Shown in pieces: positions 41,604 to 49,209 of a stretch of 50,565 nt of DNA (position 1 is the first letter of the stretch; each line of letters begins with the position of its first letter). The notes below the pieces were generated by a model. The model was not told the DNA's origin, made no database searches, and worked only from the letters and a program-made list of their open reading frames with translations. The stretch covers positions 1 through 50,565 of the forward strand of contig JAIRRC010000016.1 in assembly GCA_031256175.1 (NCBI GenBank), read 5' to 3'. Position numbers and translations under genes: made by a program. Source of the DNA: Rickettsiales bacterium. GTDB lineage: Bacteria; Pseudomonadota; Alphaproteobacteria; Rs-D84.

Positions 41604-42128
41604 TTATACAATTTGGTCAAGCGCGCCGGTTGCGGGGTCGATGACGAAGCCGTAGACCGTGATGTCTTTCGGCATCAATGGATGGTTTCTTATAATGCCC
41701 GTCGTGTCGCGGACCGAATCTTCCACGCTGGCAAATCCTTTCAGCCATCTGTCCACGTCTATGCCGGATTTTTCCACCGCGTCCAATGCGGCCGCCGGGA
41801 TGATTTTCCGCGCGTCGAAATCCTGCATTCCGCAATCCTTGTGGCCTATGACCAGAATTTCCTCCACGCCCAGCGCCCAGACCGCGACAAGCAGGCTTCG
41901 CATTCCGCTGCCGTAAGGGTGCGTTATCATCGCGCCCGCGTTCTTTATGATTTTCGCGTCGCCGTTCCGCAGGCCCAACGCGGCCGGCAAAAGTTCTGTA
42001 AGCCTTGCGTCCATGCACGAAACTATCGCGATTTTTTTATCAGGAAATTTCGTCGCGCTGTATTTTTCATATTCCTTGTCCGCGACGAATTTTTTATTGT
42101 ATTCAAGAATCTGGGCGATTTGGGACAT
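41604..42128 (-). CDS. Beta-class carbonic anhydrase (clade D-like)
   Basis: CMDARL, IKNAG, GHKDCGM zinc ligands. Confidence 0.93.
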   Translation of the reverse strand: MSQIAQILEYNKKFVADKEYEKYSATKFPDKKIAIVSCMDARLTELLPAALGLRNGDAKIIKNAGAMITHPYGSGMRSLLVAVWALGVEEILVIGHKDCGMQDFDARKIIPAAALDAVEKSGIDVDRWLKGFASVEDSVRDTTGIIRNHPLMPKDITVYGFVIDPATGALDQIV

Positions 42129-42132
42129 GGCT

Positions 42133-43107
42133 TCATTTCACCATATCGACAAGCTTCGAGTCAAGGATTAACATATCGGATTCGCCAAGCGCCAGGCGTT
42201 CGCCGGACGGCGGCGTTTTCAAAACTTCCAGGACGTCGGGCGCCAGCTTAACGCCGCGGGCGGTCCGCAGGCCGGTTATGACTTTTTCTATGGCGCGGTC
42301 GCGCGCCGTCATGGGTTTTATGGCGCCGCTAAATTGTTCGAACCAGTTTTCACCATCGAACAAGCGGCCGGCGGCGCCGGCGCCCAAACCTATGTAAGGC
42401 TCGCCATCCCAGACCCCGGAATTATGGCGGCATTCATGGCCGGGCCGGGCGTAATTGGATATTTCATAGCGTCGCAGTTGGCGGCCGATTTCAAGCCACA
42501 TATCCGCCGCCGAATCGCTTGGCGAAAATTTCGGATTCGCTTCCGGCGTTATTTCATATAAGGACGCGTGACGAAGGCCGATTTTTTTTATTTCTTCGCA
42601 CAGGCGCGCCACGTCGTCCACAGACTGGCCGGGCAGGGCGTAGATAAAATCCGCAGATGTTTCAAAGCCCGCGTCAAGCGCCGCATCCAACGCCAAGCGC
42701 GCCTGCTTGGCGGTATGGATTCGGCCTAGGAACCGCAAATGTCCATCGTCGAAACTCTGCGCGCCGATGGAAATTCTTGTTATGCCCAGCGCCTTATAAT
42801 CGGCCAGATTCGCGCTTCTGGGATTGCATTCGATGGTTATTTCGGCGCCGTCCGCCACAAGGAAATGTTTCCCAATCGCGCCCAGGATTTTCGCGAGAAT
42901 ATCGGTCGGCATAAGGCTTGGCGTGCCGCCGCCGAAGAATATCGTCGGGACGCGGCAGCGGGGCTGCCGCGCGACGCTTTTTATTATGCCGTCCGCGTAT
43001 GCGTCCCAATCGGGCGCAACGGCGGCCGAATAGAACGCGCAATAGGGGCATTTATTCGCGCAGAAAGGCACGTGGATATATAAATGGTGCGGCGGGGTCT
43101 TGTCCAT
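42133..43107 (-). CDS. hemW: Radical SAM HemW/HemN-like protein
   Basis: LYIHVPFCANKCPYCAF, FFGGGTPS, EITIECNP, YEISNYARPGHECRHN; short C-terminus. Confidence 0.8.
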   Translation of the reverse strand: MDKTPPHHLYIHVPFCANKCPYCAFYSAAVAPDWDAYADGIIKSVARQPRCRVPTIFFGGGTPSLMPTDILAKILGAIGKHFLVADGAEITIECNPRSANLADYKALGITRISIGAQSFDDGHLRFLGRIHTAKQARLALDAALDAGFETSADFIYALPGQSVDDVARLCEEIKKIGLRHASLYEITPEANPKFSPSDSAADMWLEIGRQLRRYEISNYARPGHECRHNSGVWDGEPYIGLGAGAAGRLFDGENWFEQFSGAIKPMTARDRAIEKVITGLRTARGVKLAPDVLEVLKTPPSGERLALGESDMLILDSKLVDMVK

Positions 43108-43226: not shown

Positions 43227-43676
43227 ATGGCTCATAAAAAACTCGCGCAGCTGCTGTTGCAGAACGTCGCGTCCTTGTCCAGGCTGGCCGGGGATATACG
43301 CGGCGGCGCGCCCGTCAACATGAAATCCAAACAGCATTTCGAGGTTATGGTGCGCCTTAAACTGGACGGCCGGACCATGCTTAAAGACATGGCCGCGCGG
43401 TCCCACATGTCGGCCGCGAACATAAGCACCACCATAAAGAACCTTGAAGCTGACGGGCTGGTCCGGCGCGAGCAGGACAAGGCCGACCGCCGCAACGTCT
43501 GGTATTCCCTGACCAAGAGCGGCGAAAAATCGGCCGAGGCCGCGGTCGAAAAATTCCTTGGGAACATCACGAAATTTTTCGCCCGCCTTCCAGAACGGGA
43601 CGAAACGCGCTTCGTGTCCGCGCTTATGGACGTGAACGAAATCCTTAAAAAAATAGAAGAAAACGACGATGAATAA
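43227..43676 (+). CDS. MarR family transcriptional regulator
   Basis: LKDMAARSHMSAANISTTIKNLEADGLVRREQDKADRRNVWYSLT winged HTH. Confidence 0.93.
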   Translation: MAHKKLAQLLLQNVASLSRLAGDIRGGAPVNMKSKQHFEVMVRLKLDGRTMLKDMAARSHMSAANISTTIKNLEADGLVRREQDKADRRNVWYSLTKSGEKSAEAAVEKFLGNITKFFARLPERDETRFVSALMDVNEILKKIEENDDE

Positions 43677-45006
43677 AATAATAACGGCATTATTCGGAAT
43701 GTTCCTTATAGCGGAAGCGGGCGCCGCGACCATGAAGCTCGGCATGGAGGACGCCGTCCTTAAAATCATGGCCGCAAGCCAGGACGTCAAGAAGGCCGAC
43801 CTTAACGTCAGGAAATCCGAGGCCGTGTTCAACGCCGCGCGCGCGGGACGCTTCCCGAAGCTTAGCGCCAGCGGGACATACATGAACAACATCAATGTCG
43901 ACAATCCCGGCCAACCAAAATACATCGACATGCCGAACATTCCCGTCCTTGACAGCGGCGGCAATCCGATTGGCTTCCTTCCGACAGGCGGCGGGCTTCG
44001 CGTGCCGGACAATATCGGCATGGCGGGGCTCGACCTGACGCAACCCATCTATACTTTCGGCAAACTCGGCTATGGTCTGGACGCCGCGCGGTCGGCCATC
44101 AAAATCGCGGAATCGTCGGCCGAGCTCGCGCGCAGGGAAATGCGCGTCGCCGCCGTTCAAATCTATTACGGCGCCAAGATGGCCGAGCATGTTCAATCAA
44201 TCGTTCAGAAATCTTTGGATAACGCGCGCAAAAACCAGCGCGCGCTCACCATGGGCGCGGGCAGGGCGAACAAGGCCAACCTGCTGAAAATTTCGACCGA
44301 TGTCGTCATCAAGGAATCGCAGCTTGCGGACGCGAAGTTCAACGCGGACTCGGCTATGCGCATGCTTAAAATCATGGCCGACATCGACGAGGAATACAAT
44401 GTAGTTCTGACGGACGAGATTCCGTCCAAGTTCGCGAAGGCCCCGTCGGCCGAGATGTATAGCTATCCCGAATGGGACATACATCAGGAGGCATACAACG
44501 CTTCGCGCGCTTCGATGAAATCGAAATACGCGGGGTTCCTTCCGACCCTTGCCGCGACGGCTTCGTATAACTATGTCATGATTCACGATAGCGCCGACGT
44601 GTGGAACGGAAGCAACGGCAAGAACGCTTCCGTGGGGCTTGCAATTTCGATTCCGATTCTGGACGGCGGTTTGGCGCGCTATCAGGCGACCCAGGACGCG
44701 CGCGAGGCGGACCGCGCCCTTCAAGACCTGGACAAGGCGAAAAAGCTGCGCCGCAACGATTTGGTGGAAGCCGTAACCAAGCACAATTATCTTGTCGAAA
44801 ACCTTAAAACGCAGCGTCAGGCGCTCGAACTCGCGCAGAAGACCTACAAGATGTCGTCCGACCGATTCGCCAGCGGGCAGACAAGCGCCGTCGAATTGTC
44901 GGACGTCGAATCTTCCCTGGTCCAGCTTGAAGTCGCGCAGATGAACACGCGCATGCAAATCGCAATCGCGCAGGAAAACATCAGAAAACTTACGGGTGAT
45001 AAATGA
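43669..45006 (+). CDS. TolC family outer-membrane efflux protein
   Basis: Signal peptide; ARAGRFPKLSASG, LTQPIYTFG, AGFLPTL, ISIPILDGG, RFASGQTSAVEL. Confidence 0.92.
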   Translation: MNKIITALFGMFLIAEAGAATMKLGMEDAVLKIMAASQDVKKADLNVRKSEAVFNAARAGRFPKLSASGTYMNNINVDNPGQPKYIDMPNIPVLDSGGNPIGFLPTGGGLRVPDNIGMAGLDLTQPIYTFGKLGYGLDAARSAIKIAESSAELARREMRVAAVQIYYGAKMAEHVQSIVQKSLDNARKNQRALTMGAGRANKANLLKISTDVVIKESQLADAKFNADSAMRMLKIMADIDEEYNVVLTDEIPSKFAKAPSAEMYSYPEWDIHQEAYNASRASMKSKYAGFLPTLAATASYNYVMIHDSADVWNGSNGKNASVGLAISIPILDGGLARYQATQDAREADRALQDLDKAKKLRRNDLVEAVTKHNYLVENLKTQRQALELAQKTYKMSSDRFASGQTSAVELSDVESSLVQLEVAQMNTRMQIAIAQENIRKLTGDK

Positions 45007-45587
45007 TGGACAAAAAGCTTCTTAAAAGAAACGCGGCAATCCTAATCGCCGCGCTTATCGCGGCTTTGGTGATTTACCGCGTCGCCGCCATCGTCAAAGA
45101 AGGCGACAGGCAGGTAAGCAACATCGTCCGCATACACGCGGAATCCGGCGTTCCGGTCAGGACCGCGCTTGTATCCGAAAGCATCCAGGATTTGAAGTTC
45201 CCGCTGTCCCTTAAAAACGGCCGCGCTTTCGTTCCGCTCGACGTCAAAATCCGCCTTAAAAAAGGGATGTCGGTCGGCGACCAGAAGATAACTTCCATTT
45301 CGAACAACATAGATTTCGACACCGGTATGTATGAGGTCCGCGTGTCCGGAAACCTTGTCGGCGAATTCAATGCGACGGAACCCGCGAGCGGAATTTTCAT
45401 CCCGCGCGAGGCCGCTTCCGACGGAATCGCATGGGTGGCCGAAGACGGCGAGGCGCGTCCGCGCAAAATCAGAATCGCCGCGATGGACGCGGAATCGATA
45501 CTTGTCGCGGGCGGGCTTCTTGACGGCGACATGCTTATCGTGTCTTCGAGCCATCTTCTTTATGACGGATTAAAGGTGAAGCAATGA
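45003..45587 (+). CDS. Unusually short RND periplasmic adaptor (membrane fusion protein)
   Basis: N-terminal TM, VPV strand, ITSISNNIDFDTGMYEVRV barrel, IPREA...GGLLDGD membrane-proximal motifs; only 194 aa. Confidence 0.8.
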   Translation: MMDKKLLKRNAAILIAALIAALVIYRVAAIVKEGDRQVSNIVRIHAESGVPVRTALVSESIQDLKFPLSLKNGRAFVPLDVKIRLKKGMSVGDQKITSISNNIDFDTGMYEVRVSGNLVGEFNATEPASGIFIPREAASDGIAWVAEDGEARPRKIRIAAMDAESILVAGGLLDGDMLIVSSSHLLYDGLKVKQ

Positions 45588-48500
45588 TTAAATTTTTCGT
45601 AGACAGGCCCGTCACAACTTTGATGTTCGTCATGTTCTGGGTGATACTCGGCTTATGGTCGTTCCCGAAGATGAACGTCGAACGCGCGCCCGCGATGGAT
45701 TTCCCGATGGTGTCCGCGACGCTTATTTATCCCGGCGCGAACCCTTCCGAAATAGAGGAACAGGTCATAAAACCCATAGAAAGCGCCATCGCCGAAGTGT
45801 CGCAGATAAAGCGCCTTTCGTCGCAGGCCTTCGAAAGCGGCGGCTTCGTCATGGTCGAATTCACGATGGAATCCGACATAAACCACAAGCTGCTTGAAGT
45901 CAAAGACAAGGTCGAGGCTATCGTCCTAAACCTGCCGGCAGAGCTTAAAAAGCCGCGCATCGAAAAGCTGAACGTCATGCAGGAATCCGTCATGGACATG
46001 GTCATTTATAATGACGGCGAGGAAGACGCGGAATTCCTTAAAAAGGCATACACATACGCCGAAGAAGTCCTGGCGAACAAGCTTACCGCCATAACCGGCG
46101 TCGCTTCGGCCAAGGTCATCGGCGGGCGCGAGCGCGCGATACGCATCGACCTTAACCCGGTCCTTATGATGTCGCGCGGAATCGGAATTTCCGACATAAC
46201 CGCCGCGCTCGGGCAAAGCAACCTGAACTTTCCGGGCGGCAAAATCGAATACGGCGCCGGTTCCATGCAGGTGCGCTTCGTCGGCGAATTCGCGTCCGTC
46301 AAAGACATCGCGAACCTTTCCATAACCACTTCGGAAGGCGGAAGATTCCGCCTGAAAGACGTTGCGTCCGTTTCGGATTCCAGCCGAAAGCAGGAAAGCG
46401 GCGCGCGCATGAACGGAAGCGACATGGTCATGATTTCAATCGTCAAAGCTTCCGACGGAAACGCGATAAGGATTTCCAAAGCCGTAGAAAAAAACATGAA
46501 AAAATATGCCGCCGCGACGCGCGCCGAACTTGGCGACGCGGCGCAGCTTAAAGTCGTCAGCAATTCCGCGACCGCGATTTCGAACGAAACCAGTTCGACC
46601 CTTAACGGCATCATTCTTGGCATGATTCTTACCATCGCCGTCCTGCTTGCATTCACGCGCAACTGGCGCACCACAATCATCGCGTGCGTCGTCATACCGG
46701 CGTCGCTAATCGCGGGATTCTTCTTCATGAGCGCGAGCAATTTCACGATAAATTCCTTCACGATGCTTGCGATGGCTACTGCTCTCGGCTCGCTTATATT
46801 CAACGCCATCATTATAATCGAGAGCGCGCTTATGCTTATGCACGAGGGCGCTTCGCCGCGCGACGCCGCAATCAACGGCACCGGCCGCGTCGCGGCGGCG
46901 GTTCTGGCGGGCGCGGGAACGAACATGGCGGTTTTCATACCCCTTGCGATGATGGACGGAATCGCGGGCCTGTTCATGAGCCAGTTCGGAATGTCGGTCG
47001 TGTATCTTACGATATTGTCGCTTATGTTCTCGTTCAGTCTTACACCGATGATGATTGCGCTTATGCTTCGCGTCAAAAAAGAAAAAGCGAAAGTCAAAAA
47101 GGAAGAAGTGGAGGGAATTTTCAAAAAGATTTTCGAATTCCAATTCAAGCGGCCGCTTGTCGTCATCGGCGCGTCGTTCGGCGTCCTGATATTTTCCATG
47201 ATGCTGATGCCGTTCGTCGGAAACGAATTCAAGCCCGAAACCGACACTTCGGAAATCTCGGTCATAGCCGAGGCGCCGCGCGGCGCGACTTACGCCAAGT
47301 CGCTGGGCATCGCCGAAGCGGTCGAGGACAAGCTTAAAAAATTCCCGGAAGTCGTCGCGACATCGACCCGAATAGGCGAGCGCGGCGTCGAGAATATATT
47401 GGTCGTCGCAACGCTTAAACCGCAGGGCGAACGCGGCATTTCGGACAAGCGCCTGGCGCAGCTTATGGTGCCCGCCATGGCCGACATAATCGACGCCGAA
47501 ATCCAGGTGAAGCCCGGCAAAGTCATGGCCGGCATGGCTTCCGACATAACCATAAACATTTTCGGCGACAACGACGAAGTCCGCGAAGGATACGCCGCGC
47601 GCGCGATAGACGCCCTGAACAACATGCCGGAAATCCAATCGGCGCGCCTGTCCGCGAAAAACCCCGGATACGAATACCGCTTCGTTCCGAACGCCGCCAA
47701 GATGAATCTTTACGGCGTCAACAACCAGCAGGCCGCGTTCGTCCTGCGCGCCGCGCTTTACGGCAACGACAACTACAAGTTCCGCGACAACGGCGAAGAG
47801 GTCCCGATTATAGTAAGCGTCGGCGACGAATTCGTGAATCCCGACATGTTCGAAAACATAATGGTGAAGTCGGTCAAAGGGCTTGTGCCGCTGGCCGAGC
47901 TTGGCGAAATAAAACGCGCGCCCGCGTCGCCGAACATCTACCGCCGCGACAAGGCGCGGGTCAGCGAAATCCAAGTGATACTCGGCAAATCGACGATGGG
48001 CCCGGTGCAGGGCAAAATATCGGAATCCTTCAACAAGTTCGATTTCGCGCCCGGATACGGATTCTATTTCGCCGGCATGGGCGAAATCCAGGCGGAAACC
48101 ACGGGCGAAATGGCGGGCGCGTTTCTGCTCGCGGTCATACTTACGTATATGCTTCTCGCGGCGATTATGAATTCGATGCTGCATCCGTTCACGATAGCGA
48201 CGGGAATCCTGACTTCGTTTTCGGGCGTGTTCATAATGCTGTTCCTGTCGGGCGCGTCGATTAACATCGCGGCTATGCTTTCAATCATCATGCTTGTGGG
48301 GCTTGCGGTGAACAACAACATAATCATCCTGGAACCGGCCGTCGCGGAAATCCGGAAGGGCGGCGACATGAAAAAAGTTCTGTGGAAGACGTATCACGAA
48401 AGGTCGCGCATGGTCGTCATGACGTCCATCGCGGTGGCGGCGGGAATGGTGCCGCAGCTTTGGTCGGCCGAAGGAATGAAATCCTCTATGGGCGCGGTCA

Positions 48501-48616
48501 TAGTCGGTGGTATGCTGGCGGCGCTGGCGTTCACGTTCGTCCTGACGCCGGCGCTGTTCATAACGATGGAAAAAATCAGAAGCAAAGCGATGGGTATAAA
48601 ATGGCCGTTAAAATAA
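45584..48616 (+). CDS. RND efflux transporter (AcrB/MdtB-like)
   Basis: FVDRPV N-terminus; PGANPSEIEEQVIKPIE; IYRRDKAR; RSRMVVMTS; about 12 TM; TM4 atypical. Confidence 0.95.
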   Translation: MIKFFVDRPVTTLMFVMFWVILGLWSFPKMNVERAPAMDFPMVSATLIYPGANPSEIEEQVIKPIESAIAEVSQIKRLSSQAFESGGFVMVEFTMESDINHKLLEVKDKVEAIVLNLPAELKKPRIEKLNVMQESVMDMVIYNDGEEDAEFLKKAYTYAEEVLANKLTAITGVASAKVIGGRERAIRIDLNPVLMMSRGIGISDITAALGQSNLNFPGGKIEYGAGSMQVRFVGEFASVKDIANLSITTSEGGRFRLKDVASVSDSSRKQESGARMNGSDMVMISIVKASDGNAIRISKAVEKNMKKYAAATRAELGDAAQLKVVSNSATAISNETSSTLNGIILGMILTIAVLLAFTRNWRTTIIACVVIPASLIAGFFFMSASNFTINSFTMLAMATALGSLIFNAIIIIESALMLMHEGASPRDAAINGTGRVAAAVLAGAGTNMAVFIPLAMMDGIAGLFMSQFGMSVVYLTILSLMFSFSLTPMMIALMLRVKKEKAKVKKEEVEGIFKKIFEFQFKRPLVVIGASFGVLIFSMMLMPFVGNEFKPETDTSEISVIAEAPRGATYAKSLGIAEAVEDKLKKFPEVVATSTRIGERGVENILVVATLKPQGERGISDKRLAQLMVPAMADIIDAEIQVKPGKVMAGMASDITINIFGDNDEVREGYAARAIDALNNMPEIQSARLSAKNPGYEYRFVPNAAKMNLYGVNNQQAAFVLRAALYGNDNYKFRDNGEEVPIIVSVGDEFVNPDMFENIMVKSVKGLVPLAELGEIKRAPASPNIYRRDKARVSEIQVILGKSTMGPVQGKISESFNKFDFAPGYGFYFAGMGEIQAETTGEMAGAFLLAVILTYMLLAAIMNSMLHPFTIATGILTSFSGVFIMLFLSGASINIAAMLSIIMLVGLAVNNNIIILEPAVAEIRKGGDMKKVLWKTYHERSRMVVMTSIAVAAGMVPQLWSAEGMKSSMGAVIVGGMLAALAFTFVLTPALFITMEKIRSKAMGIKWPLK

Positions 48617-49209
48617 TCTTGTTCGATTTCGACGGAACGCTTAGCAGCGGCGACGCGAATTTCGGATTCTATTATTATACCTTTCGGCGAAGCTGGCGCC
48701 CGGCGCTGTTCCTGCCGCTGATAGCGGCCGGCGCAATCGCCAAACTGTTCAATCCTTACGGCATATGGCCGCGCGAAACCATGCGAAGGTATCTGACCGC
48801 GAATATGGTCAAGAAATTCGCGCCGGGATTTATCGCGGAGCATAAGCGGAACCGGTTCGGCTGGGCCGCGGACAAAACCGCCGAAGAAAAAGCGCGCGGC
48901 GCAATCGTCATCTGCATATCCGCAAGCCCGAATTATCTGTTGAAACCATTGGTCGCGGATTTGGGATTCGATTTCGTGATTTGTTCGGAAATGGAAAAGG
49001 CCAGGCCTTGGAAATACGCGAAGCCGTGCTGGAATAAATACAAAGTCGCGCGATTGGCGGAATGGATGATGGAAGAGGAAATAGAAAAGACAGACGTCGT
49101 CCGCGCATATTCAGATTCCAAGTCCGATTTGCCGATGATGGACCTTGCGAAGGAACAGGTTTGGATTAATCCTAGGACAGGAACTCGAAGTTGCCGACGG
49201 CGCGGGTGA
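48601..49209 (+). CDS. HAD-IB family hydrolase
   Basis: LFDFDGTL motif I, ISAS motif II, NKYK, AYSDSKSDLPMM motif IV; ATG 48601. Confidence 0.9.
   Translation: MAVKIILFDFDGTLSSGDANFGFYYYTFRRSWRPALFLPLIAAGAIAKLFNPYGIWPRETMRRYLTANMVKKFAPGFIAEHKRNRFGWAADKTAEEKARGAIVICISASPNYLLKPLVADLGFDFVICSEMEKARPWKYAKPCWNKYKVARLAEWMMEEEIEKTDVVRAYSDSKSDLPMMDLAKEQVWINPRTGTRSCRRRG

Follow-up and report, generated by a model that had tools for sequence, protein, structure and literature searches.

An RND efflux permease lacking the proton-relay carboxylates belongs to a conserved clade that spans many phyla

The proton relay of AcrB, the resistance-nodulation-division (RND) permease of the E. coli AcrAB-TolC system, consists of D407, D408 and K940 together with R971 and T978, and its substitution abolishes efflux (PMC8277102). 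According to reviews, central acidic residues proved essential in every pump where they were substituted (PMC8277102), and D407 was invariant in a survey of 135 pumps (PMC8300642). In the AcrB structure, D408 has hydrogen bonds with S481 of transmembrane helix 6 (TM6) and with the backbone of TM5, K940 is bonded to N941 and T978, and water from the cytoplasm reaches the relay mainly through a channel between TM5 and TM10 (Eicher et al., PMC4359379). Mechanistic models of RND efflux all rest on the titratable carboxylates of TM4. Here we analysed a permease gene at 45584..48616 (+) in a stretch of 50,565 nucleotides from a Rickettsiales bacterium (contig JAIRRC010000016.1, called the window below). 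An earlier note on this DNA had raised the question of how the pump is energised, and the question is a genuine one, as D407, D408 and K940 are all absent. Relay residues are numbered as in E. coli AcrB (sequence from NC_000913), unless the window protein is named.

The permease, 1010 amino acids long, matches the Pfam family ACR_tran (PF00873) from end to end, with 591.5 bits for a cut-off of 28 and residues 1-995 placed on profile positions 1-1020. None of the NCBIfam RND models NF033617, NF000282 and TIGR00915 reached its curated cut-off, the best being NF033617 with 518 bits versus 1250. An AlphaFold2 model, a check proposed in the earlier note, had a mean predicted local distance difference test score of 74 and superposed on the solved HAE-1 pumps MtrD, AcrD, AcrB and CmeB with TM-scores of 0.80-0.89 over about 1045 columns (around 0.85-0.89 for AcrB). 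As modelled, the permease is a full-length AcrB-type RND protein, with a predicted 12-TM fold and two large periplasmic loops (porter and docking). The best match in PDB to the single window sequence was C. jejuni CmeB (5T0O, 5LQ3; 255 bits), while a profile of the clade described below matched best the MdtB subunit of E. coli MdtABC (9LYQ; 816 bits). Both proteins have the same length, 12 TM helices and porter and docking domains, align over residues 3-998, and share with the window permease N391, G403, E414, S481, N941, E947, R971, R973 and T978. Identity is nevertheless only about 20-25%, and where MdtB and CmeB carry D407, D408 and K940, the window permease has F, N and N, plus a T-N pair in TM5.

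The centre of TM4 (46796..46822, +) reads I405-F406-N407...E413 in the window protein, the first three residues being encoded by ATA TTC AAC at 46796..46804, inside ALGSLIFNAIIIIES. F406 and N407 stand under D407 and D408 of AcrB in pairwise as well as multiple alignments, and E413 under E414. The centre of TM10 (48311..48334, +) is N910-N911-N912...E917, with codons AAC AAC AAC at 48311..48319 inside GLAVNNNIIILEP; N910 takes the place of K940, and N911 and E917 correspond to the retained N941 and E947. The start of TM11 (48401..48424, +), reading RSRMVVMTS, holds R940, R942 and T947, the equivalents of R971, R973 and T978. The descriptions of TM4, TM10 and TM11 in the earlier note were thus correct: of the HAE-1 residues in the AcrB sense, Asp407 and Asp408 of TM4 and Lys940 of TM10 are absent, and Arg971 and Thr978 of TM11 are present. 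The same placements were obtained from HMMER pairwise alignments with CmeB and MdtB and from MAFFT alignment with AcrB. Furthermore, when the 12 AcrB TM helices were mapped onto the window permease and trimmed by 3 residues per end, no D, E, K, R or H was left in any of the 12 TM cores, compared to five in AcrB (K342, E346 and the three titratable relay residues D407, D408 and K940). A shifted alignment could therefore not provide a carboxylate, and an alignment artefact is ruled out by these charge-free cores and by the agreement of the HMMER pairwise and two MAFFT alignments.

The same positions were followed in close homologues, which come from uncultured Alphaproteobacteria of gut metagenomes, with a MAFFT alignment of 122 sequences that included E. 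coli AcrB and the 120 best homologues (53-100% identity). Asparagine replaced both D408 and K940 in 121/121 close homologues. Loss of the aspartates is lineage-wide, whereas the particular change of D407 to F is not: position 407 was S in 114 homologues and F in 7. Six homologues, 62-84% identical to the window permease, share its F-N pair in TM4. N407 and E413 of the window protein were invariant in the 121 sequences and at least 98% conserved across the clade described below; position 971 was R or K and T978 was kept in all 121, and position 947 was D or E throughout. By the Nei-Gojobori method, the ratio of non-synonymous to synonymous substitution rates (dN/dS) against an 84% identical orthologue was 0.12 (dS 0.90), with 0.09 for the membrane part and 0.13 for the periplasmic part. 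The permease is under purifying selection, and its TM domain is more constrained than its periplasmic domain. Nothing beyond the missing relay residues themselves speaks for a sequencing error, or for loss of function by decay or in one strain only. Since F-N occurs in six homologues, and N408 and N940 in all 121, a sequencing error is excluded; the open frame, the low dN/dS, the identical substitutions in close homologues and in many phyla, and the conserved operon refute decay as well, so that we attach practically no weight to either. We take the gene to encode a selected permease that is probably part of a functional exporter, as predicted from its sequence and context.

We next asked how far the trait extends. 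With phmmer, 1.84 billion cluster representatives were searched exhaustively, and the 150 nearest were classed by their relay residues. Three classes appeared: a canonical one (D-D in TM4, K-N in TM10), a one-Asp class (D-x, N-N) and an Asp-less class (x-N, N-N), in which x, at position 407, is T, A, S, N, V, F, M or I. When one genome per GTDB species was scanned for the TM10 peptide G[ILV]VVNN[AG]I[LV][LIV], at least 600 matches were obtained; among the best 80 loci, which were classed, 55 were of the single-Asp type (D at 407) and 19 Asp-less. A tree was computed with FastTree (LG+gamma) from 215 sequences and 978 columns, leaving out the six relay columns. It unites 65 of the 66 Asp-less sequences in a single clade of 68 leaves with a support of 1.0. 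Midpoint rooting leaves the sister class of this clade ambiguous, descent from the one-Asp class included. The window permease is nested in an alphaproteobacterial subclade of it and carries the TM4, TM5 and TM10 motifs of what we define here as the Asp-less signature: G-x-L-V-[TSANVF]-N in TM4, T-N in TM5 and V-V-N-N in TM10. Its TM5 pair is T446-N447 (46919..46924, +), at the place of V448-L449 in AcrB; this pair is T-T in the one-Asp class and hydrophobic in the canonical class. Hosts include Elusimicrobia, Gemmatimonadota, KSB1, Thermovirgaceae/Synergistaceae, Fibrobacter, Nitrospiraceae, Lentisphaeria/Victivallales, Treponema, and Sedimentisphaerales and Pirellulales (Planctomycetota). 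The absence of the aspartates is not special to this gene; it is the mark of a large monophyletic clade spanning many phyla. The note had also held the first Asp to be almost universal in RND pumps, which is right for pumps that have been studied (135 in the survey of PMC8300642) and wrong for sequence space. Similarly, K940 is indeed lost, as it had pointed out, but this loss is unremarkable alone, the very large one-Asp class of Bacillus, Bacteroidota and Planctomycetota being without it too. Full-text searches of the literature turned up no account of RND pumps forming such an Asp-less clade, which is apparently undescribed.

The one-Asp class, found in Bacillus, Paenibacillus, Porphyromonas, Alistipes, Planctomycetota and others, resembles the window permease by its Lys-less TM10 (GIVVNN), N408 and T448. 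It differs by having D407 in 100% of its members and T rather than N at position 449, and in the tree it stands apart as a clade of its own. Conservation was compared between the three classes, the Asp-less set being of 66 sequences, and is given here in the order Asp-less, one-Asp, canonical. Position 408 (TM4) was N in 100%, N in 75% and D in 100%; 448 (TM5), T in 100%, 96% and 39% (variable in the last); 449 (TM5), N in 97%, T in 87% and I in 42% (again variable); 940 (TM10), N in 98%, N in 96% and K in 90%; and 941 (TM10), N in 95%, 98% and 95%. E414 (TM4) was found in 98%, 99% and 100%, and S481 (TM6) in 98%, 92% and 100%. Mean column identity is about 40% across 36 clade members, a background from which the figures for the relay site stand out. 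Positions 408, 449, 940 and 941 shift jointly between the three classes. They also changed together in one member of the alphaproteobacterial subclade, P0123 (53% identical), with 408 N to D, 449 N to H, 940 N to S and 941 N to T, which indicates that the four positions act as one co-evolving unit. P0123 can be seen as an experiment of nature on co-variation at the putative ion site. An acidic residue occurs at position 449 of TM5 in 12 canonical pumps, which is consistent with a side chain that faces the polar core.

The reading we favour, to which we give a probability of about 0.5, is that the permease is a still-active engine, coupled to an ion through this polar cluster. In the clade, the Asp-Asp-Lys relay has been swapped for a conserved cluster of neutral polar residues, N408 in TM4, T448 and N449 in TM5, and N940 and N941 in TM10, with S481 near it, T978 too in the host lineage, and E414, E/D947 and R/K971 retained on the cytoplasmic side. 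By homology to AcrB, the conserved Asn and Thr residues would line the water path between TM5 and TM10. The neutral Asn/Thr cage could bind a coupling ion, either Na+ or a proton in the form of hydronium or on a water wire, and ion binding would make the two five-helix repeats alternately engage and disengage, the part that protonation plays in AcrB. An active, ion-driven engine is favoured because the substituted core has been kept polar and the membrane domain is the most constrained part of the protein. We infer all three terms of this scheme: the polar cluster as ion site, the identity of the ion (Na+ versus hydronium/water), and a substrate.

Alternatively, the pump could still be driven by protons through a relocated relay, E414, E/D947 and R/K971 being the titratable groups and the Asn and Thr residues merely lining a water wire. 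The conservation of E414 at 98-100% in all three classes, and of D/E at 947 and R/K at 971 throughout, speaks for such a relay, as does the pairing of R971 with E414/N415 at the repeat interface of AcrB (PMC4359379). However, these residues are situated at cytoplasmic helix ends, where they are likely always open to one side, which fits poorly with alternating access. They are also kept equally in canonical pumps that need D407, D408 and K940, so that nothing about them is specific to the clade. For these reasons a relocated relay appears unlikely. A relocated carboxylate in the membrane was looked for as well: among the 66 clade members, no recurrent acidic position was found in the TM cores, the sporadic ones lying near helix ends. 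This rules it out clade-wide, with the exception of a Synergistota subclade. In that subclade (L010, L038 and P0211), TM11 carries a ..MAD motif whose Asp falls on AcrB position 979, and this residue may be a relocated carboxylate.

[quoted passage not shown] The host assembly (786 kb, 91.6% complete) has a single ACR_tran gene. It belongs to a family of gut Alphaproteobacteria with genomes of 0.8-1.0 Mb, of which 32 were sampled. An ACR_tran gene was present in 60 of 61 genomes (0.5-1.1 Mb) sampled from the host order. Each of the 32 family genomes, some of them 99-100% complete, has exactly one full-length RND protein, verified to be of the Asp-less type in the host and in 17 of its family relatives; the gene is retained in these reduced genomes. 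The host genome had no match for subunit c of ATP synthase or for RnfD/NqrB, and no match to NuoH, H+-PPase or OAD-beta was obtained in 16 sampled genomes of the family. The sole ATP-synt_ab match in the host genome was Rho, and each relative had one similar weak match, a frame of some 430 amino acids scoring about 105 bits. By comparison, F1 alpha and beta are present in sister families of the order. In a search for the TLC ATP/ADP translocase, no control genome gave a match.

Canonical GLVVDDAIVVVE pumps, scoring about 950 bits, were found in 10 genomes of the host order (genus g7, G002-G045, loci L088-L097). All 10 have an ATP synthase (F1 alpha/beta); no canonical pump occurred in a host-order genome without detectable F1 alpha/beta, and the Asp-less pump was found with or without ATP synthase. 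This co-occurrence of canonical pump and ATP synthase is suggestive, although all 10 genomes belong to one genus and phylogeny, as a confounding factor, may alone account for it. An uncoupled pump would agree with this distribution, with the lack of any titratable residue in the TM cores, and with a host family in which ATP synthase, complex I, Rnf/Nqr, H+-PPase and OAD gave no matches. It would not explain why dN/dS is lower in the TM part than in the periplasmic part, or why the substituted positions are near-invariant and polar instead of drifting towards hydrophobic residues. Moreover, the clade is common in bacteria such as Gemmatimonadota and Nitrospiraceae, which respire normally. The host also retains a SecDF with its conserved charged residues, D519 in SecD and D213 and R247 in SecF (E. 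coli numbering; G000 contig C41:14342..16749, -), so that the loss of membrane charge is specific to the efflux pump. We consider the absence of coupling rather improbable on this evidence, and the passive or structural role put forward in the earlier note fits poorly for the same reasons.

A third alternative is that the permease is a passenger subunit in a heterotrimer with a canonical RND protomer, as in MdtB2C. MdtB is the nearest solved structure by the clade profile, and some genomes of the sister family f3 hold both a canonical and an Asp-less pump. The two f3 pumps are, however, at separate loci and not adjacent. By the MdtBC-type criterion, a second RND permease gene was found neither in the host operon nor elsewhere in the host genome. 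With one full-length RND per genome in the family, a heterotrimer with a canonical partner is excluded for these hosts, and it seems a very remote prospect overall.

Several points weigh against the ion-coupled engine that we favour. Position 407 varies freely, and the cluster is therefore not a one-for-one replacement of the relay. That the five polar residues cluster in space was taken from AcrB rather than from model coordinates, and their supposed ion binding and transport are a proposal built on sequence comparison. We know of no precedent for a carboxylate-free cation site in the RND superfamily; Dispatched and Vibrio SecDF, which are Na+-dependent members, retain Asp residues. No solved structure, curated family or characterised member of the Asp-less clade was found. 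Finally, searches of the host family for F/V-ATPase, NuoH, RnfD/NqrB, H+-PPase and OAD-beta found none of these primary pumps, leaving no evident source of an Na+ or H+ gradient; with RnfD/NqrB and OAD-beta among those not found, Na+ bioenergetics in particular receives no support. A wider claim, that the clade uses across phyla a coupling chemistry new to the superfamily, a carboxylate-free Asn/Thr cage for Na+ or hydronium, and that it is the sole RND type kept in a gut lineage after loss of ATP synthase and of the other primary pumps searched, is one we would put forward only tentatively, as a possibility short of an even chance. In any case, the Asp-less clade implies either a second, undescribed mode of ion coupling or RND machines that work without an ion gradient. 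Either answer bears on the powering of efflux in anaerobes and gut bacteria, on inhibitors that target the relay, and on how the RND engine evolved. Its single pump, lacking a partner RND and combined with a minimal adaptor, makes the host lineage a clean natural test case.

The permease gene is the last of a four-gene operon, all on the + strand. The first gene (43227..43676) encodes a MarR-family regulator (Pfam MarR, E = 7.8e-12); it is followed by a TolC-like OMF of 445 amino acids (43669..45006; Pfam OEP, two repeats, E = 3.8e-43; TIGR01844 type_I_sec_TolC, 88 bits) and by a minimal periplasmic adaptor of 194 amino acids (45003..45587; TIGR01730 RND_mfp, E = 1.9e-9). All junctions overlap, by 8 nt between marR and the OMF gene and by 4 nt at both OMF/adaptor and adaptor/permease. 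As stated in the earlier note, the pump is intact and linked to marR. With genes for an OMF and an RND_mfp-like adaptor 5' of the permease in the same operon, an organisation shared with AcrAB-TolC, the products would form a MarR-regulated tripartite exporter made of OMF, minimal adaptor and RND pump. The order marR-OMF-adaptor-RND is kept at loci L005 (84% permease identity) and L003 (55%), where marR also precedes the OMF gene. In clade operons of other phyla no extra conserved energiser gene was found, just OEP, a normal-length adaptor, a TetR regulator and unrelated genes. Long relatives of 1425-1629 amino acids, among them P0149, P0203, P0205, P0213 and P0267 of 1471-1629, combine a full RND permease and a complete OEP (TolC-like) domain in a single frame. 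Such proteins exist in the canonical as well as the Asp-less class, are not ATPase fusions, and could be either true fusions or read-through gene calls.

The adaptor is about half as long as AcrA (397 amino acids). It matches TIGR01730 through its C-terminal half only (profile positions 160-320 of 322) and also has a match to the TriA/TriB fusion 6VEJ, in the membrane-proximal part of the latter; neither a lipoyl nor a hairpin match was found by profile. Adaptors of 191-198 amino acids occupy the equivalent place at L003 and L005, in the alphaproteobacterial subclade, whereas the Asp-less pumps of other phyla are accompanied by an OEP gene and by an adaptor of 350-390 amino acids with lipoyl and barrel-sandwich matches. 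The alphaproteobacterial subclade is thus peculiar in a second and independent respect, its mini-adaptor. An RND adaptor that also lacks the alpha-hairpin is known in BesABC of Borrelia burgdorferi (PMC2279261; BesA structure, PMC3807786), for which the relay residues are not mentioned in the paper on the system (PMC2279261). Lack of the hairpin suggests another way of engaging the OMF, which might touch the RND docking domain directly. BesA, of about 300 amino acids, retains its lipoyl domain, unlike the 194-residue adaptor of the window, of which the C-terminal half only matches the RND adaptor model.

Two observations were made on the neighbourhood of the operon. Divergently upstream of marR, the window has a HemW-like radical-SAM gene (42133..43107, -) and a beta-carbonic anhydrase gene (41604..42128, -), and the same holds for L005. 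After the operon comes a gene for a HAD-IB family hydrolase (48382..49209), which is also found with the 55% and 84% identical permeases (L003:9543-10145 and L005:9087-9758, respectively); its link with the pump may be functional.

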